Source: a virus
DNA length: 44,683 nt
Reading direction: 5' to 3' (one strand)
UHGV virus genome: UHGV-0176991
Under the pieces are notes generated by a model, which made no database searches, was not told the DNA's origin, and worked only from the letters and a program-made list of their open reading frames with translations. Both the position numbers and the translations under genes were made by a program. Positions 5,117 through 38,783 of the stretch are shown piece after piece (position 1 is the stretch's first letter; each line of letters starts with the position of its first letter).

Positions 5117-5373
5117 TATTTAGCGTCCTCTGGTAGTTCCGGTAAATACATCCAGTGCGTTATGCCCATCTCGATATACTGTTTCGTATATAACTGATTT
5201 CCGTTTTTATCCAGCCCAGCAGTAATGTCGTCGAAATAGTCCTGTATATGTACAAAATCAATTCCACCTTCCGGGAACCCGTTATCGCCATATTTACGGC
5301 CATCTACTGAGCAAACTAAAACAGAATCGTCTTTTGACTCCGGTAATGCTTCGTTTACGCTAATCCAATTCAT
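5116..5373 (-). CDS. DUF551-like phage protein
   Basis: MNWISVNEALPE...ITHWMYLPELP pattern; start at internal ATG 5373 overlapping upstream stop. Confidence 0.5.
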   Translation of the reverse strand: MNWISVNEALPESKDDSVLVCSVDGRKYGDNGFPEGGIDFVHIQDYFDDITAGLDKNGNQLYTKQYIEMGITHWMYLPELPEDAK

Positions 5374-5642
5374 GCCCTGCTTTCCCACTGGTCGATTAAA
5401 TGTCGTGTCTTGTGATGACAGTGCATAGCCCACCCATACATCGACTCGAAGACATAAAAGTCAGGTTTAGCGAAAGTCGTGCGCTTAATCTGCGACACGT
5501 GGCGGCCTATATCTTTAGGCCGTGGTGCCTGGCCTAAGTACGCCATCTCTTCCATCTGGTGCGCACCGGACGGCGCACGCAAGAGCCATAGCGCCTCTGT
5601 GTTATCCCGCCTGTCTACGGCGCGGTAGAGTTGGTAAATCAT
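5370..5642 (-). CDS. hypothetical protein
   Basis: ORF in tight ATGA-overlapped early gene string; start at ATG 5642. Confidence 0.45.
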   Translation of the reverse strand: MIYQLYRAVDRRDNTEALWLLRAPSGAHQMEEMAYLGQAPRPKDIGRHVSQIKRTTFAKPDFYVFESMYGWAMHCHHKTRHLIDQWESRA

Positions 5643-10231: not shown

Positions 10232-10601
10232 ACATAATCGCACCTATTGACATTATGAAAATCTTCGTTTAAGGTGCTTCTATATCTTAGTTACTTTGAT
10301 TCCTGTTCACCTTGTAAGAATGTTTAACCCGTGCGTCAAGCAAAGGGTTAAACACAGGCTTACTGAACATGAGAATTATCGTAACTTTACTTCCTAAGTA
10401 TCTCCGGTTGCCTTGGGCAAGCTCTATTCTCATCGGCAGCATATCTCTTAAGTATCTGATTTTCTTAATATGCCGTAGATTCGCAACCGTAAAAATGTAA
10501 CGATTATTGGGCAGGCTTAAGGCCTGCCCTTTAGTTACCAAGTAAAAAGAATAAAGGCACAACAGTTTCTAAAGAATCACAACGGCATCGTAACTATTTA
10601 C

Positions 10602-10630
10602 TTGCACACCCCAACATAATAGGGTACTAT
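10602..10630 (+). promoter_or_regulatory. sigma70-type promoter (plus strand) TTGCAC-17-TACTAT
   Basis: ttgcacaccccaacataatagggtactattcac; near-identical 35-nt element also at 30933..30961 in reverse orientation. Confidence 0.5.
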
Positions 10631-21036: not shown

Positions 21037-21497
21037 TGATGGGCTTTTTTAAAGTAACTGATGTACCGTCGCGTCGCGTAGTCCAGTACGCCCGCGTGTC
21101 TGGCTCTGGCGAGAACGTAGTGTTTATTGAAGACGAAAGTGTACTAGGTACACCAGTAGACGATATGCCGTTTGCAGATAAAACTGGTATTGCGCTACCG
21201 GCGGCGGGCATGCTTTATGAAATTCCGTATCTGGCGGATGCTGGCGAGGTGTATTTCTCAGTGCAACCCGCCGATACAGAACTGACCGACGGCAGCGTGA
21301 CTATCGCTGTCGAAGTTAAGGCGGGTAAAGCGCCGTATGCGCTGACCTGGTATAAGGACGGTAAGGAAGTGGTAAACGCGCCGGAAGAGGCTTTGTCTCT
21401 GACGGTTAATGCAGTCGGTGAATACTTCGTGAAAGTCACTGATGTCGATGGTGTAGAGGCGGTAAGTAAAGCGGCGAAGGTAACTAAGCCGGAATAA
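21036..21497 (+). CDS. Ig-like domain protein
   Basis: YALTWYKDGKEV...GEYFVKVTDVDG Ig-like pattern. Confidence 0.45.
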   Translation: MMGFFKVTDVPSRRVVQYARVSGSGENVVFIEDESVLGTPVDDMPFADKTGIALPAAGMLYEIPYLADAGEVYFSVQPADTELTDGSVTIAVEVKAGKAPYALTWYKDGKEVVNAPEEALSLTVNAVGEYFVKVTDVDGVEAVSKAAKVTKPE

Positions 21498-21500
21498 ACT

Positions 21501-21524
21501 AAGCCCCCGAAAGGGGCTTTTTAG
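21501..21524 (+). terminator. intrinsic terminator
   Basis: agcccc-cgaa-aggggct + ttttt. Confidence 0.7.
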
Positions 21525-21586
21525 TGCCTATGATTATTCCAGTTATTCCACTGAATTGTAAATGTTGGAATAAACTATTCGAATAG

Positions 21587-21615
21587 TTGACTTTTCACTA
21601 AAAATATGCTAAGCT
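21587..21615 (+). promoter_or_regulatory. sigma70-type promoter TTGACT-17-TAAGCT
   Basis: ttgacttttcactaaaaatatgctaagct. Confidence 0.45.
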
Positions 21616-21793
21616 CCACCTGAGCTTGTGAAGTATGAACAAGCGACCGCGGCGCGGGAGGGTAACGGAGCGGGACGTAAGTCCTGAGTGTAGTTACGCT
21701 GACGCGTTCGGAAGGGTCATACTCTATTGCTTGTGTAAAAAGTAACTGGTTTACTGAGATTACGCCGTTTCTATGTTTAAATGATAAGGCCTA

Positions 21794-21822
21794 GCGCCCC
21801 GCTTTATGGCGGGGCTTTACTT
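21794..21822 (+). terminator. intrinsic terminator
   Basis: gccccgc-tttatg-gcggggc + tttactt. Confidence 0.6.
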
Positions 21823-21839
21823 ATCGAGAAAGGAGAAAC

Positions 21840-22226
21840 ATGAATCTTAAAGCAACTGTCGTAGCGGGGGCATGTTTCATCATCCTGGCTTACGCACACG
21901 GCATCTGCCAATACCGCAGTGGCTGGAACGAAGGCCGGGCGAATCTCGTTTCGCAGCAACAGCAGAAGGCGCAGGCTGAATTAGCAAAGAAAACACAACG
22001 GCAGCAGCAGGATGAATCAAAGGCCGCAGCCGCCGACAACGAAGGCAAGACGAAATCAGAGGTGATTACCCGTGAAGTCGTTAAGTACATTAAAACGCCT
22101 GGTCGCAGCGTGTGCACTTTCGACGATGCTCGCGTCCTGCTCAAGTCCCGCGCCGTCGCAAACGCCAATTCCATCCCCGGATACGACGATGATGCAGCCG
22201 CCGTGCAAACTGGCACTGCCAAGTAG
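21840..22226 (+). CDS. Rz: i-spanin (Rz-like)
   Basis: N-terminal TM then Q/A-rich coiled coil; overlapped by lipoprotein ORF in +1 frame. Confidence 0.7.
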   Translation: MNLKATVVAGACFIILAYAHGICQYRSGWNEGRANLVSQQQQKAQAELAKKTQRQQQDESKAAAADNEGKTKSEVITREVVKYIKTPGRSVCTFDDARVLLKSRAVANANSIPGYDDDAAAVQTGTAK

Positions 22227-22335
22227 CGACGCCGACGAGGATTTAGCTATCGACGTTCAGAATACTGAATGTGTACGGCAACTGAGACTGAAAGTGTTCA
22301 TGTTGCAGGATTACGTGAGGAATATTCTGGAATAG
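22072..22335 (+). CDS. Rz1: o-spanin (Rz1-like lipoprotein)
   Basis: Signal peptide with lipobox LASC, proline-rich mature region SSPAPSQTPIPSP; starts inside Rz in another frame. Confidence 0.7.
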   Translation: MKSLSTLKRLVAACALSTMLASCSSPAPSQTPIPSPDTTMMQPPCKLALPSSDADEDLAIDVQNTECVRQLRLKVFMLQDYVRNILE

Positions 22336-22417
22336 TTGCCTTGCATGTTGGAATAATTTATTCTTGACATGTAAATCCGGGTGGCCCGGATTCCAACGTC
22401 CAGGGGACATACTGACT

Positions 22418-23119
22418 ATGAATCGTTTTTTATGTTATCCGTTCCAGGAAGAAGCTGGGGCAGAAGATAAAGCCGGCGGCGGTGATGCGCCGAAAATGTT
22501 CACAGCTGAAGAAGTTCAGGCGCTGATTGAGAAAGAAGTTGCCGGACTTAAGGCCAATCAGGAAGCATTGCTGGCGGAGAAGAAAGAAGCTGCTCGCAAA
22601 GCAAAAGAGGCCGAAGACGAACGGCAGCGCGCACACCAGGAGGCGTTAAAAGCCGCTGGTAAGATGGACGAGTTCGAAAAGACGATTCGTAGCCAGTATG
22701 ACCCGGTGTTAGCCGAGAAAGATGGTCGCATCTCCCGAATGGCAGAGCGCATCCTCGGCAGCGAACGTAAAGCGGTGTTAGGCTCTTTCGCGGGTGATTT
22801 TATTACCCCGGAAGCAGTAGACATTCTTGCTCCGTTCGTTAAGACTGAGTTCGAAGGCGATGACGTGGTTACTAAGTTTGTCGGAGCAGACGGCAACGTA
22901 ATCACGACTGACCCGGAACAGTTCCGCAAATACCTGCGCGAACACAAAGCGTTTTCGCATTTGATTAAAGCAAATGCAGCTTCCGGCGGCGGGGCTTCCG
23001 GTAGCAAAGGCGGCGGGGCCGCACCAGCGTTTAAAGACATGAGTGAAGCGGAGCGTTTAGCTCTGTATAAATCGAACCCTGCCGAATTTGAACGGCAACT
23101 TAAAGCCCTGAGGAAATAA
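22418..23119 (+). CDS. scaffolding protein
   Basis: Charged, alanine/lysine/glutamate-rich helical protein immediately upstream of major capsid gene; ATG 22418 preferred over TTG 22364. Confidence 0.55.
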   Translation: MNRFLCYPFQEEAGAEDKAGGGDAPKMFTAEEVQALIEKEVAGLKANQEALLAEKKEAARKAKEAEDERQRAHQEALKAAGKMDEFEKTIRSQYDPVLAEKDGRISRMAERILGSERKAVLGSFAGDFITPEAVDILAPFVKTEFEGDDVVTKFVGADGNVITTDPEQFRKYLREHKAFSHLIKANAASGGGASGSKGGGAAPAFKDMSEAERLALYKSNPAEFERQLKALRK

Positions 23120-23121
23120 TA

Positions 23122-24171
23122 ATGGCAATTACCACTATCGGCGATATCGTAACTGGCAACATCCCGGTCCTGGCGTCTTATATGACCGAGGACCCGGTAG
23201 AAAAAACCGCGTTCTTCCAGTCCGGTATTCTTACCCCGACTCCGTACGCTGCCGAGATTGCCCGCGGCCCGTCCAACATCGCTAATATTCCTTTCTGGAA
23301 AGCGATTGATACCTCTATCGAGCCTAACTACTCGAACGATGTATACCAGGACATCGCAACCCCGCGTAACGTGCAGACCGGTGAGATGATGGCCCGCGTT
23401 GCGTACCTGAACGAAGGTTTTGGTCAGGCAGATTTGACCGTTGAACTGACCAGCCAGAACCCGCTGCAATCCGTAGCGTCCCGCCTGGATAACTTCTGGC
23501 AGCGCCAGGCGCAACGTCGTCTGATTGCTACCGCGCTCGGCCTGTACAACGACAACGTAGCCGCTACCGATGCTTACCACGAGCAGAACGACATGGTTGT
23601 AGACGTGTCCTCTACTCTGGGCTTCGATGCCGGTGCATTCATCGACGCTACCCAGACTATGGGTGATGCACTGATGGGTAACGGTGGTGAAGTGCTGGGC
23701 GCTATTGCGATGCACAGCTTCGTTTATGCGCAGGCTCGTAAGCAGCAGCTTATCGACTTCATCCGTGACGCTGACAACAACACCATGTTCGCCACCTACC
23801 AGGGCTACCGCGTTATTGTTGACGACAGCATGACCGTAGTCGGTACAGGTGGCGACCGTAAGTTTATCTCCATCATCTTCGGCAACGGCGCTATCGGTTA
23901 CGGTGAAGGTAACCCAACCAATCCGCTGGCCTATGAGCGCGAAGAGTCTCGCGGCAACGGTGGCGGCGTTGAAACCCTGTGGACCCGCAAGACCTGGTTG
24001 CTGCATCCGCTGGGCTACAGCTTCACCAGCGCGGTAATCACCGGTAACGGCACCGAGACTATCGCCCGCTCTGCTTCCTGGCAGGACCTGGCGAACGCCT
24101 CCAACTGGAACCGCGTTGTTGACCGTAAGCATGTGCCGATTGCCTTCCTGGTAACTGGTGTTGGTGCTTAA
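23122..24171 (+). CDS. major capsid protein
   Basis: 349 aa after scaffold, followed by strong terminator. Confidence 0.7.
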   Translation: MAITTIGDIVTGNIPVLASYMTEDPVEKTAFFQSGILTPTPYAAEIARGPSNIANIPFWKAIDTSIEPNYSNDVYQDIATPRNVQTGEMMARVAYLNEGFGQADLTVELTSQNPLQSVASRLDNFWQRQAQRRLIATALGLYNDNVAATDAYHEQNDMVVDVSSTLGFDAGAFIDATQTMGDALMGNGGEVLGAIAMHSFVYAQARKQQLIDFIRDADNNTMFATYQGYRVIVDDSMTVVGTGGDRKFISIIFGNGAIGYGEGNPTNPLAYEREESRGNGGGVETLWTRKTWLLHPLGYSFTSAVITGNGTETIARSASWQDLANASNWNRVVDRKHVPIAFLVTGVGA

Positions 24172-24187
24172 TTTGTAGGTATAATCT

Positions 24188-24215
24188 AAGGGGACTTCGG
24201 TCCCCTTTTCTTTTA
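24188..24215 (+). terminator. intrinsic terminator
   Basis: ggggac-ttcg-gtcccc + ttttctttt. Confidence 0.7.
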
Positions 24216-24229
24216 CTAAGAGGTAAATT

Positions 24230-24529
24230 ATGGCTAAGACCGGAAAAGGCTTACCGCGCAGCCTTCAGAACGTTGACTTTAGCGACCTAGATATCCCAGT
24301 GACGCCTGCTACTACCAGCGTAGTTGGTGGGGTTAAAAAGTCAGCTACTGTGGCTGCACCTGCGGCCATTACCGCCGCCGCCGGGGTGCAGTCCGCTGCG
24401 GACCCGACTAAAGCCGAGTTCGATGCGCTTGTAGCGGAGTACAATAAACTCCGAACCGATGTTACCGCGCTGCGTACTACCGTAGCGAACCTGTTAACCG
24501 CGCTTAAAAACGCAGGAACTGTAAGCTAA
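24230..24529 (+). CDS. head-associated protein (possible decoration protein)
   Basis: 99 aa, Ala-rich; position. Confidence 0.4.
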   Translation: MAKTGKGLPRSLQNVDFSDLDIPVTPATTSVVGGVKKSATVAAPAAITAAAGVQSAADPTKAEFDALVAEYNKLRTDVTALRTTVANLLTALKNAGTVS

Positions 24530-24541
24530 AGGAGCTTAAAA

Positions 24542-24892
24542 ATGGTTGATGTAATTAAACGTCGAATTACTGGCGTCTCTGACGACTCCCCGGCCGATGG
24601 TCAGGTAGAAATCGACATGGCAAATATCTCACCAGCATCTTTTTCTACCGCGCTCGCGGCTACCACCACAGTTACGGCAGGACAGACTATGACCCTGACC
24701 GTCGCGGTAACTGGCGGTCTGGGGCCATATTCCTACCAGTGGTACAAGAACAACAACGCTATCGCCGGGGCAAACGCTGCTACCTATGCGAAGGCGTCCA
24801 CTACTACCGCAGATTCAGGCACGTATAAAGTGGTTGTTCACGATGTGTATGGTAATATTATCTCCAGCAGCACTGTAGCAACTGTGTCTTAA
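24542..24892 (+). CDS. Ig-like domain protein (possible capsid decoration)
   Basis: YSYQWYKNNNAIAGA...DSGTYKVVVHD Ig-like pattern. Confidence 0.5.
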   Translation: MVDVIKRRITGVSDDSPADGQVEIDMANISPASFSTALAATTTVTAGQTMTLTVAVTGGLGPYSYQWYKNNNAIAGANAATYAKASTTTADSGTYKVVVHDVYGNIISSSTVATVS

Positions 24893-24928
24893 TACAACGG
24901 CCCTTCGGGGCCGTAATAAGGAAAGGTC

Positions 24929-25108
24929 ATGGCAGATAATTATGTAATCCGCGAAAAGTACACCCGCGTTGACGTTGTTGACGGTCAGGTGATGCCTGTT
25001 CGCGGTGTGGTAGAGGCTGATGAACTGGTTGCGACTCAACCGGACAACGAAGAAGCGCACAACAACGGCGGTGGTGCTAAGCGTCGTCGCCGTAAATCAG
25101 AGGAATAA
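24929..25108 (+). CDS. hypothetical small protein (59 aa)
   Basis: Hand translation; AAGGAAAGG SD. Confidence 0.4.
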   Translation: MADNYVIREKYTRVDVVDGQVMPVRGVVEADELVATQPDNEEAHNNGGGAKRRRRKSEE

Positions 25109-25111
25109 TTT

Positions 25112-25624
25112 ATGCCGCTAATCGTGGAAGATGGGTCAATAGTACCTGACGCAGACAGTTACATTAGTCTGGCTGACGCCCGCGCGTTAGCGGCTAATTA
25201 TGGTCTGGAGTTACCAGCAGACGATACCGACGCAGAGGTGGCATTGCGCAACGGTACTACTTATGTCGGGCTTGCAGAACCGCAGATGTGCGGTCGCCGC
25301 GTGTCAGCAGAACAGTCTCTGGCGTATCCTCGCACTGGGGTAACGTCGAACGGCTTCCCTGTAGCTAACAATGCCATTCCGAAACAGGTAATTCTTGCGC
25401 AAGTAATCGCTGCGGTTACATATGGTGCAGGCACAGAGGTTCGGGCCAACTCAGACGGACGTTCGGTACAGACCGAGCGCGTAGAGGGCGCAGTGACCGT
25501 GACATACTTCAACAACGGCAACAGCGGAGCTACTACCGCGATTACTGCTGCGGACGACGCCTTACGCCCGTTACTGTGTGGCGGTCTTAACAATGGTTTC
25601 TCGTTTAACGTGTACCGGGGTTAA
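25112..25624 (+). CDS. head-tail connector protein
   Basis: Position between capsid and tail genes. Confidence 0.4.
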   Translation: MPLIVEDGSIVPDADSYISLADARALAANYGLELPADDTDAEVALRNGTTYVGLAEPQMCGRRVSAEQSLAYPRTGVTSNGFPVANNAIPKQVILAQVIAAVTYGAGTEVRANSDGRSVQTERVEGAVTVTYFNNGNSGATTAITAADDALRPLLCGGLNNGFSFNVYRG

Positions 25625-25626
25625 AA

Positions 25627-26241
25627 ATGGCGAAAACTAAGTCAGAGATGTTTACCCTTATCGGTGCGAACCTACCCGATAACACCACCGGACTTATTAC
25701 CCCGGCAGCATTGCGCGAGGTAATGACGCAGATGGCCGACTCGCCTATTTACGCCACTCCGGGGGTTAAAGAGGTTGAAGTTCTCCGCGCGGCGTCGACC
25801 GTAACACAAGCGCCCGCGGCAGTAGATACGGCACTGCAGTTAACTTTCGGCTCTGCTCAGGGAAGCGCCTCCGACCCGGTAATGATTAATGCTGCGGGGC
25901 TGGTTACGTTCAACACCGCAGGTAACTACGCCGTTCGCATCAAGTTACAGGCGGGGCGCACGGGTGCTAGCGGAACGTCCATCCTGCTATCGCGGGTTCT
26001 TCTTAACGGCGCTCAGTACGGCTCGCCCGCTGCCACGAAACTGGTAAGCGCGGATGTAACGATTCCGATTGAGTCTCGCGTCGTTATTAACCCAACCGCG
26101 GGCCAGACGTTTGCCGTTCAGATTATGCGTGATAGCGCCGGAAGCAACTTCGGTGGTGTATACCCGCAAGCGGCGACCGTAACTGCATGGGGTACTGCAC
26201 CGTCCGCATTACTGGTTATTTCGAGACTGGAGGCTGCCTGA
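25627..26241 (+). CDS. head-tail joining protein
   Basis: Position. Confidence 0.4.
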   Translation: MAKTKSEMFTLIGANLPDNTTGLITPAALREVMTQMADSPIYATPGVKEVEVLRAASTVTQAPAAVDTALQLTFGSAQGSASDPVMINAAGLVTFNTAGNYAVRIKLQAGRTGASGTSILLSRVLLNGAQYGSPAATKLVSADVTIPIESRVVINPTAGQTFAVQIMRDSAGSNFGGVYPQAATVTAWGTAPSALLVISRLEAA

Positions 26242-26600
26242 TGAGCACCGCTTTCAGTAAACGTATGCAAGGCGTTGGTACACGCCTGTTAACCAAATTC
26301 GGTAGCACGGTATCCCTGATTCGCGCTGGCTCGAAAGTGTGGGACGAAGTTCTCGGTGAATACGTCTGGTCTGCGGATGAAGTGTTGCCGTTGAAGGCCG
26401 TTCCGGTTCCGGTAAACGCGGAACGGGTAAACGGTACGACGATTCAGGCTGGTGACATGATTGTTAAAGCCGATTACAGCGTCGTTCCGAAGATGGAAGA
26501 CAAGGTACAATTCGGCGGAGAACAATGGTCTGTTGTAGCCATCGAGAAGAAGATGGTTAACGATGATGTCGTGGCCTACTTTATTCAGGTGAGAAAATGA
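26241..26600 (+). CDS. head-tail joining protein
   Basis: Internal ATG of ORF 26187..26600 overlapping upstream stop. Confidence 0.4.
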   Translation: MSTAFSKRMQGVGTRLLTKFGSTVSLIRAGSKVWDEVLGEYVWSADEVLPLKAVPVPVNAERVNGTTIQAGDMIVKADYSVVPKMEDKVQFGGEQWSVVAIEKKMVNDDVVAYFIQVRK

Positions 26601-26992
26601 GTTTCGCGCTTGATGTCTCTAAGTTCGTAGAAAAGGCGAAGAAGAACCCTGAGAAGGTGATGCGCCAGGTGTCTATCAAGCTGTTTTCCGCTATTATAAA
26701 GGCGAGTCCGGTAGACACGGGCCGATTCCGTATGAACTGGATGGCATCTGGTGGGGCTCCTGCTTCAGGTACTACAGACGCCGTCGATAAATCAGGAAAC
26801 ATAGCTATCGGAAACGCTACAAGTTTCGTACTGAAAGCCGCCGACTGGCACGAGTTTACACTGGCAAATAACCTGCCGTATGCGCAACGGCTGGAGTATG
26901 GCTGGTCGCAACAGGCCCCCGCTGGGATGGTTAGGACCAATGTGTCTCGCTTCCAGCAACTCATTAACGAAGAAGCCAACAAGGTGAAATGA
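26597..26992 (+). CDS. tail completion/neck protein
   Basis: Position. Confidence 0.4.
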   Translation: MSFALDVSKFVEKAKKNPEKVMRQVSIKLFSAIIKASPVDTGRFRMNWMASGGAPASGTTDAVDKSGNIAIGNATSFVLKAADWHEFTLANNLPYAQRLEYGWSQQAPAGMVRTNVSRFQQLINEEANKVK

Positions 26993-27405
26993 TGGGCTAC
27001 TTTGAGGACTTAACAAAAGCGTTCGATGTGCCGCTGGTAGCCTTCGGAACCGCCAACGGCATCAGGGTTGCGCTTGAAAACATCGACGCGCCGACGTCAA
27101 CCGATACACCATATCTGGCAAGTTACATGTTGCTGGCGGATACCGAGCAGGCTGATTTGTTCTTCACGGAACAACGCGCCGGTGTTTATCAGGTCGACAT
27201 TAACTACGCATCGGTGAAAGGTAGCGCGCCAATCAATAAAATGGCAGACTTACTTAACACGGCGTTTAAAGCAGGTAAGTCATTTTCTCGTAACGACATC
27301 TGCGCCGAGGTTCAATCGGTTAGCCTGGGGCCGCTGATTGTAGAAAACGGATGGGCCAAACGACCATTGTCAATTAACTTTATTGCATTCACCAAGAGGC
27401 TGTGA
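26989..27405 (+). CDS. tail terminator-like protein
   Basis: Position immediately upstream of major tail gene. Confidence 0.4.
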   Translation: MMGYFEDLTKAFDVPLVAFGTANGIRVALENIDAPTSTDTPYLASYMLLADTEQADLFFTEQRAGVYQVDINYASVKGSAPINKMADLLNTAFKAGKSFSRNDICAEVQSVSLGPLIVENGWAKRPLSINFIAFTKRL

Positions 27406-28577
27406 ATATGGCTACAACTCCTTTTAAGGGCGCGAATACCGCGCAATTCTATGTGGCAGAAGTGACCCCGGGTGTAACACCAAGTAGCCCGGTATGGTCG
27501 CCGTTGCGCAACACAGGTGGCGTTCCTGCGGTAACCCGTGATGCGCTGACCTCCAACGAACTTGACGGCAGCCGTGAAACTACGTCCATCCGCACCGGTA
27601 ACAAGCAGGTTAGCGGGGAGTACGCCATCGAACTTAGCTCCCGTAGCCAGGATGATTTCCTTGCTGGCGCTATGACTTCTACGTGGCAGGATGGCGTGAC
27701 GTTATCCGCTGTTGGTATTACAGTGGACCCGGTAGCGAAAACCTTCACCCGAGCCGCAGGAAGCTTCATTACTGACGGTGTAGAGGTTGGGGACCTTCTG
27801 TATTTTGACGCTTTAACTGGCGACAACTCTAAGCCGTTCATCGTTACCGCCGTAACAGCTACGGTTGTTACGGGCGCAGGTATCCAACACACCCTGACCG
27901 CTGAGGGCCCTATTGAGACCGACGGTAAAACCGGCGACAAGCTGGAAACCGGCAACGCATGTAAGACGTTCTCCATCCTGACGTGGTTCAAAGGCCAGTG
28001 CGGTAACCCTGACGCATACATGCTCACCAAAGGCGTGGAAATCTCTGGCTTCACCGTGGAGCAGGCGGTTAACGCTATGGTCACCGGCAGCTTCCCGTTC
28101 ATTGGCCTGAGTCAGGAGATTCTTACCGCACCACCGACAGGTTCCGACTTCTCTCAGGTCACCTTCGCCGACGAGCCGTTCTCATCTGTAGATGTGTCTG
28201 TGTTCGACGGTTCTACGCCGTTGCGTTGTGATACTCTCACTATCACCAACGATAACGGTGCTTCCGCGCAGTTCGAACTCGGCAACAGTAGCGTGGCGTT
28301 CGTGGAACGTGGCCGCGCAACTAACACCTTCTCCATCTCAGGTAAGCTGTACGACATGGCAATGATTCAGAAGTTTATCAACGAGCAGCAGGTAGAGATT
28401 AACTCTATTCTGGCGGGGGTAAATGGGGCTATGTCTTTCAGCCTAAAACGCGCAGAGCTTACGGCGGTTACACCAGAGATTGGGGGGCCTGAGTCAATCA
28501 CTCAGAGCATAGAAGGACAGTCCACAGGCAATCAATATCAATCTTCAATTGTAATACAGCGTATTAGCTACGCGTAA
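27402..28577 (+). CDS. major tail protein
   Basis: 391 aa, last structural gene before chaperone/tape-measure unit; followed by terminator. Confidence 0.55.
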   Translation: MNMATTPFKGANTAQFYVAEVTPGVTPSSPVWSPLRNTGGVPAVTRDALTSNELDGSRETTSIRTGNKQVSGEYAIELSSRSQDDFLAGAMTSTWQDGVTLSAVGITVDPVAKTFTRAAGSFITDGVEVGDLLYFDALTGDNSKPFIVTAVTATVVTGAGIQHTLTAEGPIETDGKTGDKLETGNACKTFSILTWFKGQCGNPDAYMLTKGVEISGFTVEQAVNAMVTGSFPFIGLSQEILTAPPTGSDFSQVTFADEPFSSVDVSVFDGSTPLRCDTLTITNDNGASAQFELGNSSVAFVERGRATNTFSISGKLYDMAMIQKFINEQQVEINSILAGVNGAMSFSLKRAELTAVTPEIGGPESITQSIEGQSTGNQYQSSIVIQRISYA

Positions 28578-28580
28578 GGA

Positions 28581-28603
28581 AAAGGCCCCGAAAGGGGCCT
28601 TAC
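28581..28603. terminator. GC hairpin terminator aaggcccc-gaaa-ggggcctt
   Basis: Perfect hairpin; reverse complement of the hairpin at 29111. Confidence 0.55.
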
Positions 28604-29097
28604 TATTTACCGTGGTTCTTGTGAAACCCTAAATCTCTTTCAGCAACTCTCCTCGCGGCAACTGCATCTAGTAGCGTTTTAAAGCATCCGATGTGTGTTT
28701 TTACGTTATTGTTGAATATCTGCGCATACCACAACCTTTCTTTCGCGTTCCAGTAAACCCCGGTTACTCCTGATTTATTATTACGCTGTTTTGACATATT
28801 TTTATGGTTTTCCGCATTGGACTTTTTAGCTAAGTTAAGCGGTCTATTGTTTATTCGGTTATGGTCTAGATGGTCTATTTGATCTGACGAGGTTAGCTTA
28901 TCGTTAGGATTGTTTAAGTCCCATGCTATACGGTGTGCCGCGTGCCATTTGCCTCTGAAAAATATCCTTCTATATCCGTCTCGCTGTATAGTACCTGCCT
29001 CCTCTCCAGCCTTAGCCCTCCCGGACCGTGTTACTCTGTTAAATATCCTTCCTGAAATTAAGTCGTATATGAAAAATTCATTCCAATCCATAATCAT
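28603..29097 (-). CDS. HNH homing endonuclease with AP2 DNA-binding domain
   Basis: IDHLDHNRINNRPLNL (HNH) and SGVTGVYWNAKERLWYAQIFNNNVKTHIGCFKTLLDAVAARRVAE (AP2); AT-rich relative to flanks. Confidence 0.75.
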   Translation of the reverse strand: MIMDWNEFFIYDLISGRIFNRVTRSGRAKAGEEAGTIQRDGYRRIFFRGKWHAAHRIAWDLNNPNDKLTSSDQIDHLDHNRINNRPLNLAKKSNAENHKNMSKQRNNKSGVTGVYWNAKERLWYAQIFNNNVKTHIGCFKTLLDAVAARRVAERDLGFHKNHGK

Positions 29098-29110
29098 CTC
29101 CTATTGTCAT

Positions 29111-29137
29111 AAGGCCCCTTTCGGGGCCTTTTTCTTA
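29111..29137 (+). terminator. GC hairpin aaggcccc-tttc-ggggcctt + T-run
   Basis: Identical 22-mer also at 40997. Confidence 0.5.
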
Positions 29138-29311
29138 CTCACTTTTGAATGGCATTTCATAGAAGTTAGTTAACTGGCCCCGGTTACTCCGTTCTGTCAT
29201 TTCTTTAGAGGCCTCTTCCTTACTACCGACGGCATAAATATCGACCCACTCGTCCCATTCTTCGTCGTATACTCGGATTACATATATTGTTTTCATAATA
29301 TTTTCACTCAT
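29135..29311 (-). CDS. hypothetical small protein
   Basis: Internal ATG of ORF 29135..29353. Confidence 0.35.
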   Translation of the reverse strand: MSENIMKTIYVIRVYDEEWDEWVDIYAVGSKEEASKEMTERSNRGQLTNFYEMPFKSE

Positions 29312-29534
29312 CGATATTGCTTCGGTACTCCCGTAACTTCTCCAGGCTTTCAATTGCTTCTGCTAAGTCGGTTCCCGTGTCCTTGTGGCCGCGCAAGCCC
29401 ATACACAACAGCTTCTTCAATGCGTGCTGTAGCGCCGGGTCGCGGATGTCGAAGGCACGCAGCACATCATAAACGTCTACTGTCATAGTGCTGCCGTGGG
29501 TGTTTGTCATTGTGCGGTTATATTTTGAAGTCAT
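29304..29534 (-). CDS. DUF3310-like phage protein
   Basis: TVDVYDVLRAFDIRDPALQHALKKLLCMGLRGHKD...DLAEAIESLEKL pattern recalled for that family. Confidence 0.4.
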   Translation of the reverse strand: MTSKYNRTMTNTHGSTMTVDVYDVLRAFDIRDPALQHALKKLLCMGLRGHKDTGTDLAEAIESLEKLREYRSNIDE

Positions 29535-30661
29535 CCCAGCATCTCCGGTGAAATAGTTAAACGTGCGACCTCACCGTATTCGGCGCTATAAGTAATTACA
29601 TTCGCACTGCGCCCTGACATCCACCCGCCGCGCGAGGCGTAGGCGTCTTTAGCCGCCAGGGTGCGGTGTTGCTCAACAATCATGTTACGACTTTCTACAA
29701 TCTTCTGATGGTGCAGGTGGCCTACGTGGGCGTAGCTGTAAACGCTCTCGCCGAACGCTTTACGGAACTTGGCAATCATAACCGGTTCGATAGCGTCGAA
29801 GCGCACTTTATGCCCGTGATGGAAGAACAGCGTCGTTTTGCCGTGTTGCACCATTTTGTAAACATCCGGCGACGTGTCGACGAACACCCGCGGCTCGTTG
29901 TCGTACAGCGTACTGAACATCTCAGCCAACCAAATCATTCCGCTTTCGTCGTGGTTCCCTTGCACGATAAGCAAGCGGACATTTTTATGTTTAACCAGCG
30001 CCATATCAATAACACGGCGCACCATACGAATCATGTAACGGACCAGTTTCTGATAGCGCGTGTCCGCATCAAGAACATGACCGCTTGCTGGCGTAACGGC
30101 GTCCAGACTATCGAAGTGCGCAAGGTCACCAAGCAGGTTAATAACCCCTGTTCCTGCATCCGGCGCTTTCTGAAACGCCGCATCGAACCATCGAGAGAAC
30201 AGGTCTTCTGCAATCTTCATGTCCCAGTCGTCGCCGCTCTCGTCGGCCCAGGCCAGCATACCGAGATGGAAATCAGATACCGTGTAAAGATTGAGTAGCT
30301 TATCGTCGCGTTTGGCTCGAGTCGCTTTAACAGGGGTAACTGGTGTAATCTCCGACTTCATGCCCTCGATTACGGCCTTCATTAACTCTACCTGACGTTC
30401 GGCATCGGTGTCGGTCTTAACCCATTGCAATTTAGTGTTGCCGAACTCGTCCACTAGTGACGACGTTCCTTTAATCTTGTAGCCGTCCGGTACAAGGTGA
30501 CTAACGTCACGCCCGTGGCCTACACCTTTCTTAGCCAGCTTCGCTTTACGGATACGAATAACGCGGTCGGAGATGCCATATTTACGAGCGATGTCTACAT
30601 TCTTCATCCCGGCGTTCAATTCTTCCTGTAATTGTTCGTCGGTTATTTTCTTCTGGGCCAT
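29531..30661 (-). CDS. HTH-fused calcineurin-like metallophosphoesterase (SbcD/Mre11-like motifs)
   Basis: N-terminal HTH (NVDIARKYGISDRVIRIRK); SDFHLG, GDLAHFD, GNHDE, HHGH, GHLHH metallophosphatase motifs. Confidence 0.7.
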   Translation of the reverse strand: MAQKKITDEQLQEELNAGMKNVDIARKYGISDRVIRIRKAKLAKKGVGHGRDVSHLVPDGYKIKGTSSLVDEFGNTKLQWVKTDTDAERQVELMKAVIEGMKSEITPVTPVKATRAKRDDKLLNLYTVSDFHLGMLAWADESGDDWDMKIAEDLFSRWFDAAFQKAPDAGTGVINLLGDLAHFDSLDAVTPASGHVLDADTRYQKLVRYMIRMVRRVIDMALVKHKNVRLLIVQGNHDESGMIWLAEMFSTLYDNEPRVFVDTSPDVYKMVQHGKTTLFFHHGHKVRFDAIEPVMIAKFRKAFGESVYSYAHVGHLHHQKIVESRNMIVEQHRTLAAKDAYASRGGWMSGRSANVITYSAEYGEVARLTISPEMLG

Positions 30662-30699
30662 GCTTACTTCCTCGTGTTTAGGATTTGTCCTATACTAGC

Positions 30700-30891
30700 T
30701 CACTTCTCTTTGACATTCGAGTTGCACGCCCAGATTAAAATAAAGACCCACGGCAGTAGAACCCAGCCAAGAAACAGATTAGCCATGAATATCGCTAATT
30801 TCGCTTTATGACCACGCATATGGGCCACTAAAAACGGGATAAAATAAACTAAAACGATAATGATTAAGAAGAACATAGTAATACCTGTCAT
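30700..30891 (-). CDS. small two-TM membrane protein, superinfection-immunity (Imm)-like
   Basis: VYFIPFLVAHMRGHKAKLAIFMANLFLGWVLLPWVFILIWA pattern. Confidence 0.5.
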   Translation of the reverse strand: MTGITMFFLIIIVLVYFIPFLVAHMRGHKAKLAIFMANLFLGWVLLPWVFILIWACNSNVKEK

Positions 30892-30932
30892 GGTGTAGCT
30901 CCTGTTTGAGTTAACATTGTCGGTGTAAGTGA

Positions 30933-30961
30933 ATAGTATCCTATTATGTTGGGGTCCGCAA
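30933..30961 (-). promoter_or_regulatory. sigma70-type promoter (minus strand) TTGCGG-17-TACTAT
   Basis: Reverse complement ttgcggaccccaacataataggatactattcac, near-identical to the 10602 promoter. Confidence 0.5.
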
Positions 30962-31068
30962 GTAATGTGTTAGAATTATTTTGCGCCTAGTGTCGCACAC
31001 GAAAAGCGGGTGGTTCCCGCCTGGCGCATTCACCTTAACCAGTAACCTCTTAACCAAAGGATTAAAGA

Positions 31069-36243: not shown

Positions 36244-38783
36244 TTATCCACTACACCCGCAACGAAGACGGGACATTCACACAAAAACGGCATAACGACT
36301 CGCCGCTGAATTTCGTCGTAAACCATATCCCTGATGGCGTGCCGTTTCGCGTTTTCCTCGAAGAAATAGGCGAAGATAATGACGTAACAGAGGATTTTGA
36401 CGCCTTAAAACAGGATGCGGTTTTCCACATCCTGGAAGGTGCTGGTGGCGGCGCTATAAAGGGTGTGATGAAAGTGTTCAGCATAATCCTTAAACCGCTG
36501 GCTAAATTACTCACACCGTCAACAAAGGGCGCGTCTAACAATCTCGCTAACCAGCAAGCGGACTCGCCGAATAACAGTCTGACAGACCGAAATAACAAGG
36601 CCCGCCCGTACGAGCGAACTTATGACATCTGCGGTAGGGTGCAGACGATACCTAATAACCTTATGACCACTTATAAGGTTTTCGATAATGCAGGCCGTAT
36701 CATCGAGTATGGCTACTATGATGCCGGGCGCGGGTATCTTGACGTTAAAGCAGAAGACATCACCGACGGTGACACCAAAGTCCAGGAGATAACCGGAACC
36801 TCTGTCGCTGTGTATGCCCCGTACACATCGCCCAACAACACAAGCTCTCCGCAACTTCTTGTTGGGGAGGCTATCGGCCAAAAGTTGTATATAACCATCG
36901 CATCTAATGAAGTAGATGGTGCGGTACTGAAAGCTCAAAACGGCATAAGAGTAAACCCAAGCGACACCGGAGAGATATCGCTGCAAGGGACAACGGGTAT
37001 TGTACGTGATGCAACCGGGGATTCCGCGTTTACAGAAATTCTGTCAGTTGGCGATGTGGCCGTTTTCAATCTCATTCTGGTAAAAGATGTTGCTAACGTA
37101 AGCGGTAATTATACGGTCACTTACGTCGATGATTTCGAGGTTAGAGTCGCTGTAGGCGGTATGCTCACCGAATGGCAGAAGTTGCCGTCTGGTTTTACCC
37201 GGCTGACACAGGGCAATGAGGCGTGGATTTCACCATCAAACACATATGATAAATCATTAACCGACTGGACAACGCTTAACCGTCTGCCGGTAGAACGTAT
37301 CGTTGCTAATATCGCCGCCGCTAACGGCATGTATAAAGACAACGGCAGTAAACTAAGGGCGTCTGTTACAGTCGAGTTGCAGTACCAGTTACTAGATACC
37401 ACCGGAACACCTTACGGGCCTATATACAGTAAACAAGGCACTATCTCTGGGCGCTCCTCGGATTACACCGGCGTGACAATCTACGCTGACCTGCCATCGA
37501 CGTCTAATGTTCGCGTACGGGCGCGCAGGGTAACAAACCTGGACCTTGCTTTCGAAGGTACGGTAGTGGACGAGGTTTCGTACATAAACCTGTACGGGCA
37601 AATACGCGACACCACACCTAACTACGGCAACAGAACCACCGTGCATTCCGCACGTAAACAGACGCCCAGGGCCGCAGAGGTTAAACAGCCACAATTGCGA
37701 ATGGTAGTAACTGAGATGGTGTACAAGTACCTCGGTAACGGTGTTTTTGACTCCGTAAGAACGCCAAACACACAGGCTGTACAGTCGCTGATTCGTCTTG
37801 CCCGTGACCCGGATGTAGGCGCGTTGAATCTGACAACGGCAAATATGGATAAACTGTTGACGGTACAAAGCGAAATTGAAAGCTATTTCGGAAGCACATC
37901 CGCGGGGGAGTTTTGTTACACGTTTGATGACTATAAAACTACGATGCAGGACATAGTAACTACGATAGCGGAGGCAATTTTCTGTACCCCATATCGGAGA
38001 GGTGCGGATATTCTTCTGGACTTTGAACGCCCTCGGATTGGCCCTGAGATGGTATTCACCCATCGCAGCAAAACTACCGCTACGGAGAAGTGGACGCGCA
38101 CGTTTAACGATGCCCAGGTATACGATAGCCTTAAGTTTTCATACATCGACCCGGATACTAACGTCAAAGAGACAATCAGCATCCCGGCCGAGGGTGGGGT
38201 TAATACTGAAACGTACGACTCTAAAGGTATCCGTAATTATCGTCAGGCATACTGGGCTGCATATCGCCGCTATCAGAAAAACCTGTTGAAGAAGGTAACA
38301 GTATCATTCACGGCGACAGAAGAAGGGATTTTTGCGATGCCCGGACGTGTGGTAAGTGTGGTAAAAGGTTCGCGTATGGCCCCACAAGACGGCTATGTAA
38401 TCGCCGTTAATGGGCTTACGCTTACTCTTTCTCAGTCAGTTACATTTACCCCCGGTGACGACCACTCACTGATTCTCAAAAAGCGTGACGGTGGTGTTCA
38501 GAGTGTTGCCGTTGTTCCTGGAAGCCACGACCGTGAAGTGGTTATGCTCTCCGCGCCTCAGGAGGCAATCTACACAGGGAATAGTGCGCTAAAAACTGAG
38601 TTTTCATTCGGCAACGAAGCAAGGCATAATGCTCAGATGATTCTTGTTTCTACAGTTGACCCAGGAGACGACAGAACAGTTAAGATTACCGGGATTAACT
38701 ACGAAGCGGATTTCTACAAATACGACGGCGTCGCACCTTTCGGTCGCGGTTTCTCCGACGGATTAAGCAATGGTTTTAGTTAA
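36234..38783 (+). CDS. tail tip / central tail fibre protein (gpJ-like)
   Basis: 849 aa; TTG start per ORF track with AGGAG upstream. Confidence 0.5.
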   Translation: MAIVIHYTRNEDGTFTQKRHNDSPLNFVVNHIPDGVPFRVFLEEIGEDNDVTEDFDALKQDAVFHILEGAGGGAIKGVMKVFSIILKPLAKLLTPSTKGASNNLANQQADSPNNSLTDRNNKARPYERTYDICGRVQTIPNNLMTTYKVFDNAGRIIEYGYYDAGRGYLDVKAEDITDGDTKVQEITGTSVAVYAPYTSPNNTSSPQLLVGEAIGQKLYITIASNEVDGAVLKAQNGIRVNPSDTGEISLQGTTGIVRDATGDSAFTEILSVGDVAVFNLILVKDVANVSGNYTVTYVDDFEVRVAVGGMLTEWQKLPSGFTRLTQGNEAWISPSNTYDKSLTDWTTLNRLPVERIVANIAAANGMYKDNGSKLRASVTVELQYQLLDTTGTPYGPIYSKQGTISGRSSDYTGVTIYADLPSTSNVRVRARRVTNLDLAFEGTVVDEVSYINLYGQIRDTTPNYGNRTTVHSARKQTPRAAEVKQPQLRMVVTEMVYKYLGNGVFDSVRTPNTQAVQSLIRLARDPDVGALNLTTANMDKLLTVQSEIESYFGSTSAGEFCYTFDDYKTTMQDIVTTIAEAIFCTPYRRGADILLDFERPRIGPEMVFTHRSKTTATEKWTRTFNDAQVYDSLKFSYIDPDTNVKETISIPAEGGVNTETYDSKGIRNYRQAYWAAYRRYQKNLLKKVTVSFTATEEGIFAMPGRVVSVVKGSRMAPQDGYVIAVNGLTLTLSQSVTFTPGDDHSLILKKRDGGVQSVAVVPGSHDREVVMLSAPQEAIYTGNSALKTEFSFGNEARHNAQMILVSTVDPGDDRTVKITGINYEADFYKYDGVAPFGRGFSDGLSNGFS

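Follow-up and report, generated by a model that had tools for sequence, protein, structure and literature searches.

The non-coding interval ahead of the spanin genes of the phage genome UHGV-0176991 was shown by sequence comparison to encode a structured non-coding RNA that belongs to a previously undescribed family in Guernseyvirinae phages. This RNA is situated directly behind a predicted promoter of its own. The analysis covered the window, by which we mean the whole stretch of 44,683 nucleotides, and its relatives. All lineages compared have in common the promoter, an RNA placed right at the 5' terminus of the predicted transcript, and continuation of this transcript towards Rz. The shared feature, as far as the alignments reveal it, is a promoter-proximal leader RNA with nothing spanin-specific about it, and we favour a cis-acting leader over a spanin-specific timer. 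Our main reading, to which we assign a probability of roughly one in three, is that the unit may be a cis-acting RNA that helps RNA polymerase to read through terminators and pauses, following the logic of the put RNAs of phage HK022.

Genomic setting of the unit

A search with the 551 bases around the unit matched 371 phage records, with Kagunavirus genomes scoring best at ~95% identity, and gave no match in the complete E. coli genomes searched; by sequence, the source phage is a Kagunavirus (Guernseyvirinae; K1G-like E. coli siphoviruses). In the annotated relative Shashou, a terminase-portal-head morphogenesis-Ig/Hoc-like operon runs into a terminator, followed by the unit interval and the spanin genes (i-spanin/o-spanin, Rz and Rz1), and further downstream by the scaffold, major capsid and more head and tail genes, while its holin and endolysin genes are located away from the spanin genes. 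The features of the window are as follows.

21501..21524, + strand: intrinsic terminator closing the terminase-portal-head morphogenesis-Hoc-like operon
21533..21562, - strand: leftward promoter-like site TTTACA-18-AATAAT with TG (10 of 12 matches in the scan)
21573..21588, no strand assigned: perfect 16-bp palindrome AACTATTCGAATAGTT (self-match on the opposite strand)
21587..21615, + strand: predicted sigma-70 promoter, -35 TTGACT (21587-21592), 17-nt spacer, -10 TAAGCT (21610-21615)
21621..21725, + strand: conserved RNA core (covariance-model match of 132 bits and 91 bits; pair counts; manual helix table)
21624-21629 with 21639-21644, + strand: P1, 5'-terminal hairpin, GCUUGU-GAAGUAUGA-ACAAGC
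21635..21745, + strand: 36-codon Arg-rich ORF, a hypothetical protein in several GenBank records
21647-21649 and 21651-21656 with 21703-21711, + strand: P2, closing helix, with C21650 bulged
21662-21666 with 21693-21697, + strand: P3a
21670-21676 with 21681-21689, + strand: P3b, with a GUAA cap
21712-21716, + strand: nearly invariant single-stranded AAGGG within the motif UUCGGAAGGG(C/U)C
21726..21793, + strand: 3' module of the transcript, with CUAUUG..., the hairpin AGUAA-CUGGU-UUACU and UUACGCCGU... (alignments and fold)
21796..21825, + strand: GC-rich hairpin and interrupted U-tract UUUACUUAUC, 13 nt before the Rz Shine-Dalgarno sequence
21840-22226, + strand: Rz, first gene downstream of the unit (ORF and relatives' annotation)
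22072-22335, + strand: Rz1, embedded in/overlapping Rz (ORF and relatives' annotation)
10248-10536, + strand: second non-coding unit of the window, with promoter TTGACA-17-TAAGGT, an RNA of ~260 nt and a terminator

The upstream operon ends in the hairpin AAGCCCC-CGAAA-GGGGCUU (-11.6 kcal/mol) that runs into UUUUUAG; the strong terminator postulated at 21501..21524 in the original prediction is indeed found there, hairpin and U-run alike. It is terminator-like on both strands and is carried as a terminator in the Shashou annotation. Another strong terminator (24188-24207) follows the capsid gene. It falls within the interval from 21616 to 27213, for which the + strand promoter scan (at least 9 of 12 matches) returned no promoter. 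A 'tRNA-Ser' in three Salmonella phage records (L234, templet, 1446-1523, minus strand) is probably a false call: the feature covers the end of the Hoc-like gene and the upstream terminator on the minus strand, not the RNA unit, and the ARAGORN tRNA scan of the window gave no tRNA.

The intergenic stretch between Rz1 and the scaffold gene (22318-22392) repeats the motif ATGTTGGAATAA-N2-TATTC-TTGAC found at 21560-21592, upstream of the RNA promoter, and additionally contains the sequence-invariant hairpin CCGGGTGGCCCGG; its segment GGAATAATTTATTCTTG is identical across five diverged phages. The two copies of the motif may flank the RNA-spanin module as common binding sites of a regulator. At the equivalent position of a more distant relative (IMG/VR 3300033074_000099; L018, ~5150-5555) there is an unrelated promoter-to-terminator non-coding stretch of ~370 nt, which has no Rfam match and is followed downstream by a complete holin-endolysin-Rz-Rz1 cassette.

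Promoter and sequence just upstream

The sigma-70-type promoter of the original prediction, TTGACT-17-TAAGCT, lies at 21587..21615, and its elements and spacing are kept in four diverged lineages. A TG at 21607-21608, missed in the original prediction, makes it an extended -10 promoter, with a predicted transcription start of the unit at ~21622. Window-type, SE2-type (TAGACT-17-TGtTACGCT) and phiEap-2-type (TGGACT-17-TGaTAACCT) units as well as Hafnia phage TS33 (TTTACT-17-TGaTAACCT) all have a TtGACt-like -35, a spacer of exactly 17 nt and TGnTAnnCT; the spacer sequence and the sequence upstream diverge. A generic promoter scan omits the window's promoter, the -10 of which matches 3 of 6 positions, and it was accepted despite this omission because elements and spacing are conserved across lineages. 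The prediction of a sigma-70 extended -10 promoter for the unit is thus supported by comparison. In lambda pR' and HK022 putL, sigma-dependent pausing close to the promoter is brought about by a -10-like element within the initial transcribed region. SE2-type units (L005, L013-L016, L021) carry an element of this kind, their -10 TACGCT recurring 3 nt downstream (TACGCT-ACC-TACGCT); window-type units have TGAGCT where the SE2 type repeats the -10, the key A being absent.

Further upstream, the leftward promoter-like site is made from invariant TTATTCC direct repeats (21534-21549), and TATTCCAGTTATTCC is invariant across four lineages. Genome-wide, TTATTCC is not enriched (9 occurrences versus 5.3 expected). 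No gene lies to the left of this site before the terminator in the window. The space separating the TTATTCC repeats from the Hoc-gene terminator (21525-21562) is an insertion hot spot, at which one to three leftward genes are inserted in L003, L004, L006, L020 and L238; these cargo genes are apparently driven by the conserved leftward promoter-like site. The palindrome AACTATTCGAATAGTT, which covers the first two -35 bases (21587-21588) and is only partly conserved in other lineages, could be a candidate regulator-binding site.

Fold and covariation of the RNA core

A covariance model trained on a single lineage was used, since alignment by sequence alone misplaced the SE2-type P1 and P3a. This first model comprised only nine window-type cores, 99% mutually identical and with almost no covariation of their own, together with a hand-derived structure consisting of P1, P2, P3a and P3b. 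The window-type-only model detects SE2-type units with 31-37 bits (E ~1e-6) and the phiEap-2 unit with 17.5 bits, and in the alignment that it produced 97.5% of the cells are paired and 12 of 27 pairs have changed on both sides. A second model built from this alignment recovered 32 copies, 26 of them distinct. Among these 26 sequences, 97.4% of the cells pair, versus 81.4% in shuffles and 29-43% with slid partners, and 15 of 25 pairs have changed on both sides; the covariation score is 0.41 versus 0.15 in shuffles, with none of 500 shuffles reaching 0.41, figures to be read with the caveat that the alignment was fitted to the model and so favours the structure. An independent, manually compiled helix-by-helix table agrees with the fold. 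Based on this table and on the effect size, we consider the fold secure for P1, P3a and P3b; the P2 helix is well supported, with a stem of only 4 bp in the phiEap-2 type, where a local GCAA hairpin is in competition with it. At four positions most pairs are G-U, which would turn into C-A mismatches if read on the other strand, and as the G-U pairs fit the + strand RNA only, this RNA is the selected molecule. Structure prediction and a covariance search had been suggested as checks in the original prediction. The former gave an MFE z-score of -2.6 for the + strand of 21620-21822 (2 of 200 shuffles fold equally well), the latter revealed helices that covary across lineages, and the gcttgt/acaagc hairpin singled out as an example is P1 at 21624-21644.

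Near-invariant within the core are the basal part of its long arm, ACCG-C-GG ... UU-CGG, and the AAGGG(C/U)C that follows. The arm and its loops are free to vary: the apical loop swaps among GUAA, CACA-type, UAC and UCC, and the P3 internal loops and P2-P3 junctions are wholly different between lineages. An antiterminator pairing between the P2 5' strand and the terminator 5' strand is possible in the window type and absent in the SE2 type, and was dismissed; the varying P3 internal loops and junctions, together with this nonconserved alternative pairing, make a riboswitch less likely. Several other candidates were likewise discarded. The pairing of the P1 loop with the tail (AGUAUGA/UCAUACU), seen in the window-type MFE fold, is broken in SETP13 and absent from other alleles; a boxA-like reading of CUCUAUUG founders on its variable CUC part; a mini-ORF after GGAAGGG (UUG start) is 1 to 10 codons long and missing in the phiEap-2 type; and the match of GGAATAANNTATTC at 25102 is explained by a Shine-Dalgarno sequence with its ATG.

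The scan of the window with Rfam 15 at gathering thresholds returned only the int-alpA RNA motif, away from the unit (RF02996, 30980-31044, + strand, 36.4 bits, just over the gathering score). This match adjoins a repeated early promoter copy on the opposite strand (30926-30962), and the motif is also found in locus L020. A permissive Rfam scan of 21400-21950 gave a best score of 19.8 bits against a threshold of 70, on the upstream terminator, and the scan of seven loci from other lineages produced no match on the unit, none reaching E = 0.1. The searchable literature on Kagunavirus, Jerseyvirus, Guernseyvirinae and MB78 contained no description, experiment or transcript map concerning the RNA.

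The 36-codon open reading frame

The original prediction saw no convincing ORF in the unit and no clear Shine-Dalgarno sequence for the 36-codon frame, and its non-coding reading hinged on this frame not being conserved as a protein. We found the frame intact in 9 of 13 distinct window-type variants and frameshifted in the other 4 (L003, L011, L217 and L012), in which one-base indels shorten it to 9 codons (three variants) or 17 (one) and leave the RNA pairing intact. All ORF substitutions among the variants alter an amino acid, with not a single silent change. The start codon is located in the P1 loop and lacks a Shine-Dalgarno sequence; in SE2-type units the ATG region is deleted, and the longest ORF of phiEap-2 has 9 codons. 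The frame thus fails every coding test, and other lineages do without it. That the unit encodes a 36-residue arginine-rich peptide could be argued from the 9 variants with an intact frame and from the three genome records that annotate a CDS; in view of the pairing-preserving truncations, the lack of silent substitutions, the position of the start codon and the situation in the SE2 and phiEap-2 types, we regard the chance of this as negligible. By these measures the 36-codon ORF is not a gene, and the 'hypothetical protein' of GenBank is a mis-annotation, considering the truncating indels, the absence of silent changes and the absence of the ORF in other lineages.

3' module and downstream hairpin

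The 3' module can be aligned with SE2-type late units and with the early-locus units described below. In the window it is followed by the hairpin 21796-21815 (GCCCCGCU-UUAU-GGCGGGGC, -17.9 kcal/mol; 8 pairs in the scan, 7 of them G-C) with the tail UUUACUUAU (6 U in 9 nt; UUUACUU). The second terminator proposed to precede the Rz Shine-Dalgarno sequence is therefore present in the window, with the hairpin and U-tract of an intrinsic terminator, and its stem shows compensatory variants (GCCCCGC, GCCCAGC, GCCCUGC, GCCCGGC, GCCCGAC). The corresponding hairpin of the SE2 type is stable, with a weak U-tract and the tail UUAGCGUAU. In phiEap-2, TO17, TS33 and AH01 it consists of a 7-bp stem with a 15-nt loop and lacks a U-tract; the tail of the phiEap-2 type is UGUUACG, and its hairpin is not terminator-like. 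Judged from these alleles, the downstream hairpin is a good terminator solely in the window-type lineage and not a feature of the family, which suggests that continuation into Rz is the common state. A stable hairpin 13-14 nt ahead of the Rz Shine-Dalgarno sequence is present in every lineage.

Distribution, cassette exchange and second copies

At a coverage of at least 80%, GenBank records comprise 179 window-type, 266 SE2-type and 12 phiEap-2-type units, amounting to ~450 genomes; hundreds of phages of E. coli and Salmonella carry a member of the family at the start of long operons, and the invariant motif is common to phages of Escherichia, Salmonella and Enterobacter. In the comparison with Jerseyvirus SETP13, positions 21550-21849 of the window are 94-98% identical, whereas the flanking genes are 52-91% and the flanking proteins 63-93% identical, and the start codon of Rz marks the exact point at which identity drops from 98% to 66%. 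In further Jerseyviruses the unit is of the SE2 type, a very different allele. This identity block, with an SE2-type allele elsewhere in the genus, indicates that promoter and RNA were exchanged between genera as one unit; the alignments showed them to travel as a single cassette that heads the Rz-scaffold-capsid operon.

Pattern scans of public collections with TATTCCAGTTATTCC and CCGCGG-N-TTCGGAAGGG yielded mostly chance matches, and the covariance model rejected all 80 bacterial/archaeal loci among the matches listed as well as all non-Guernseyvirinae viral loci. Likewise, 65 distant loci encoding relatives of the head-morphogenesis protein gave no model match. L017, L018, L020, TS33 and AH01 remained below the model threshold; AH01 and TS33 show recognisable pieces by eye.

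A subset of Kagunaviruses, including the IMG/VR contigs 3300045988_039442, _018086 and _006100, carries two copies of the RNA per genome; the window has a single copy. In Shashou, the second copy (37536-37641; with promoter, L240 37500-37641) has the same TTGACT-17-TAAGCT promoter and lies ahead of the rightward early operon, and stronger second copies at the same locus were found in Ivi (L241 445-551) and SHAK7858 (L242 447-551) with 68 and 64 bits. GenBank lists SHAK7858 under Autographiviridae, although the sequence is Kagunavirus-like. Early-locus copies contribute further compensatory changes, e.g., GGAGCG/CGCUUU and GGAAC/GUUCC. At the early locus, the first gene is preceded by a separate promoter, TTGCAC-17-TACTAT, which lies downstream of the terminator-like hairpin of the unit, such that the unit looks self-contained. 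The second non-coding unit of the window (10248-10536) occupies the locus of the RNA paralog in other Kagunaviruses. Its RNA contains a near-perfect hairpin of ~95 nt (fold z = -6.05), its 3' part aligns with the 3' module of the RNA, and its terminator GGGCAGGC-UUAA-GCCUGCCC + UUUAGUU is followed by the early promoter TTGCAC-17-TACTAT at 10602-10630.

Possible function of the RNA

The original prediction of a small RNA or regulated leader held insofar as the unit is a structured RNA, non-coding and with its own conserved promoter; the proposed role in timing spanin expression proved too narrow. The rightward early operon of Shashou, Ivi, SHAK7858 and several Kagunavirus contigs of IMG/VR starts with this promoter and RNA core as well, and the second hairpin has a weak U-tract in the SE2 type and is not terminator-like in the phiEap-2 type. 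In a published Kagunavirus time course, the Mu-F-like head protein encoded upstream of the unit and the capsid encoded downstream were both assigned to the 'middle' class (PMC12645636). These data are coarse and ignored intergenic reads; taken as such, genes of one temporal class on both sides of the unit disfavour a spanin timer or any sharp timing switch. Direct translational control is unlikely as well, because the core is more than 100 nt away from the Rz ribosome-binding site and an extra promoter precedes the first gene at the early locus.

According to our main reading, transcription would start at the extended -10 promoter, 1-3 nt before P1, and the nascent RNA would act in cis on the very RNA polymerase that made it, with the conserved P2 base and the single-stranded tail serving as the putative polymerase contact surface. 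Polymerase modified in this manner would withstand pausing and termination and, coming from the unit promoter, could pass both the hairpin 21796-21815 and the terminator 24188-24207; any polymerase left unmodified would terminate, producing an RNA of ~200 nt. This reading is suggested by P1 beginning at +1 to +3 in every lineage, by the inheritance of promoter and RNA as one block, by the second copies heading the early operon with the same promoter, by the downstream hairpin being a good terminator in the window type alone, and by the terminator at 24188 lying in a region for which the + strand scan found no promoter (21616-27213). The invariance of the motif across phages of Escherichia, Salmonella and Enterobacter would fit a conserved host partner such as RNA polymerase. 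Terminators within phage late operons are common and do not alone require antitermination. The ranking of the put-like reading is weakened by the self-contained appearance of the early-locus units with their terminator-like hairpin and separate promoter, and by the conservation of the 3' module between early and late units, as a put-like core alone would need no such module; the lack of similarity to put and the 4-bp P2 of the phiEap-2 type with its competing GCAA hairpin count against it as well. Slightly more tentative is the extension to the whole family, which might constitute a second, structurally unrelated class of protein-independent antiterminator RNAs, distributed as a portable promoter-plus-RNA cassette of virulent Guernseyvirinae that is exchanged between genera.

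The self-contained early-locus units, with their terminator-like hairpin followed by a separate gene promoter, would also suit a stand-alone sRNA gene. Its product, an RNA of ~200 nt ending at 21796-21822, would be trans-acting, with mRNAs or proteins of the host or the phage as targets; it might, for instance, regulate by base pairing, sponge a protein or serve as an anti-defence decoy, and read-through into Rz would be incidental. In line with this, the window combines the unit's own promoter with a well-formed terminator (-17.9 kcal/mol; 6 of 9 tail nt are U) and contains, at 10248-10536, a second, unrelated promoter-RNA-terminator unit; the single-stranded stretches AAGGGCC, CUAUUG and UGCCGUAG are conserved, the conserved 3' module fits a trans-acting RNA, and one or two copies per genome would increase the dose. 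As to features of Hfq-type sRNAs in the phage genome, conserved single-stranded stretches are present and an adequate U-tail is found in the window type alone. However, the terminator is not conserved, neither in the SE2 type with its tail UUAGCGUAU nor in the phiEap-2 type with its 15-nt loop and no U-tract; the phage genome shows no enrichment of sequences complementary to the invariant tail (4 matches versus 3.3 expected), and an RNA acting in trans would need neither P1 fixed at the start of the transcript nor co-inheritance with the promoter. We hold an sRNA gene to be rather unlikely, if a serious contender. Another conceivable role is that of a protein-dependent or degradative leader. 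In one variant, the P2 base and AAGGGCC would bind a protein (an N/nut-like antiterminator, an elongation repressor or an RNA chaperone): the bulged C, the tandem G-U pairs and the invariant purine tail resemble a specific recognition site, and the swapping of GNRA, UNCG-like and triloop caps would make the arm a spacer and not a recognition element. Yet no N- or Q-like antiterminator is annotated in the relative with the best annotation, and a phage-encoded partner should co-vary with its site between lineages, the proteins of which are only 57-79% identical. In the other variant, the amount and stability of the downstream mRNA would depend on RNase III, with its site in the long hairpin, and on stabilisation of the 5' end by P1. 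Interrupted hairpins are typical of phage RNase III sites (T7 R sites), and 5'-terminal hairpins shield mRNAs from RNase E; the P2-P3 stack of ~21 bp, broken by internal loops, has such a shape, and the stable hairpin 13-14 nt before the Rz Shine-Dalgarno sequence in every lineage is compatible with a leader as well. RNase III cleavage and 5' protection would, however, leave the invariant bulged helix base and single-stranded motif unexplained. We rate a leader of either kind, like the sRNA gene, as rather unlikely, if a serious contender. Finally, the 300-bp block that is 94-98% identical between genera amid far more diverged flanks, a sign of recent cassette exchange, might be taken to mean that the inverted repeats are a DNA-level signal for recombination or replication, or a neutral remnant kept similar by recent transfer. 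This is highly improbable, given that independent alleles (window-, SE2- and phiEap-2-type and three early-locus types) keep the helices by compensatory changes, that the G-U pairs fit the + strand RNA only, and that a conserved promoter is directed into the element.

Implications

Kagunavirus and Jerseyvirus phages are among those most frequently isolated for therapy and food safety. In the ~450 GenBank genomes, the element is either unannotated or called a 36-residue hypothetical protein, and its status as a selected RNA corrects this annotation. The RNA unit also marks the predicted start of the transcription unit holding the spanin, scaffold and capsid genes. We know of no late regulator in these phages, and the element is a candidate for control of long operons that would use host RNA polymerase alone. 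We know of no protein-independent antiterminator RNA in phages other than HK022 put. Should the RNA act on polymerase, it would be the second such example, and the solution would have arisen more than once; should it act in trans, it would represent an abundant early phage RNA.

Comparison with known systems

The lambda late leader consists of the constitutive promoter pR', a 194-nt '6S' transcript and the terminator tR', ahead of lysis and morphogenesis genes, and read-through requires the Q protein, which is loaded at a site in the promoter DNA. To our knowledge, the lambda late leader is not a conserved folded RNA. The unit resembles it in its order of sigma-70 promoter, ~200-nt untranslated transcript, intrinsic terminator and then lysis and head genes; unlike in lambda, no Q homologue is annotated in the relative examined here, and the RNA fold is under selection. 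Processive antitermination leaders (Bacillus EAR, Tn916, pLS20 conjugation) are structured RNAs between a promoter and the first terminator. The unit shares with them the placement of a structured RNA early in a long operon of a mobile element, whereas those leaders occur in unrelated organisms, have unrelated folds and in several cases need a partner protein; none of this type was matched in the Rfam scans of the unit. Like the Rfam phage sRNAs and the int-alpA motif, the RNA is a short structured RNA in a phage intergenic region, but it matches none of these families.

The nascent put RNA of HK022 binds the beta' zinc-binding domain of RNA polymerase and suppresses pausing and termination in cis. 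PutL and putR are promoter-proximal nascent stem-loop RNAs, one heading each early operon, with downstream terminators that must be passed and no dedicated phage antiterminator protein (PMC9378689). The unit is similar with respect to its position at the transcript start, its coupling to a promoter, the copies that head two long operons in some genomes, and the terminators downstream. It differs in the size of its core (~105 nt versus ~70 nt for put, which consists of two stem-loops), in that an action on polymerase is here something we infer, and in that HK022 is a lambdoid temperate phage and the phages considered here are virulent siphoviruses. Homology to put was rejected: the sequence and fold of putL and putR are different, the sole shared motif is a short ACGAACG-CGC run in the phiEap-2 type, and the second model found no match in the HK022 immunity region (24000-31000, E <= 10). 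The family is, in our assessment, a new one of a familiar general kind, and the original reading as a non-coding regulatory RNA is right in kind.
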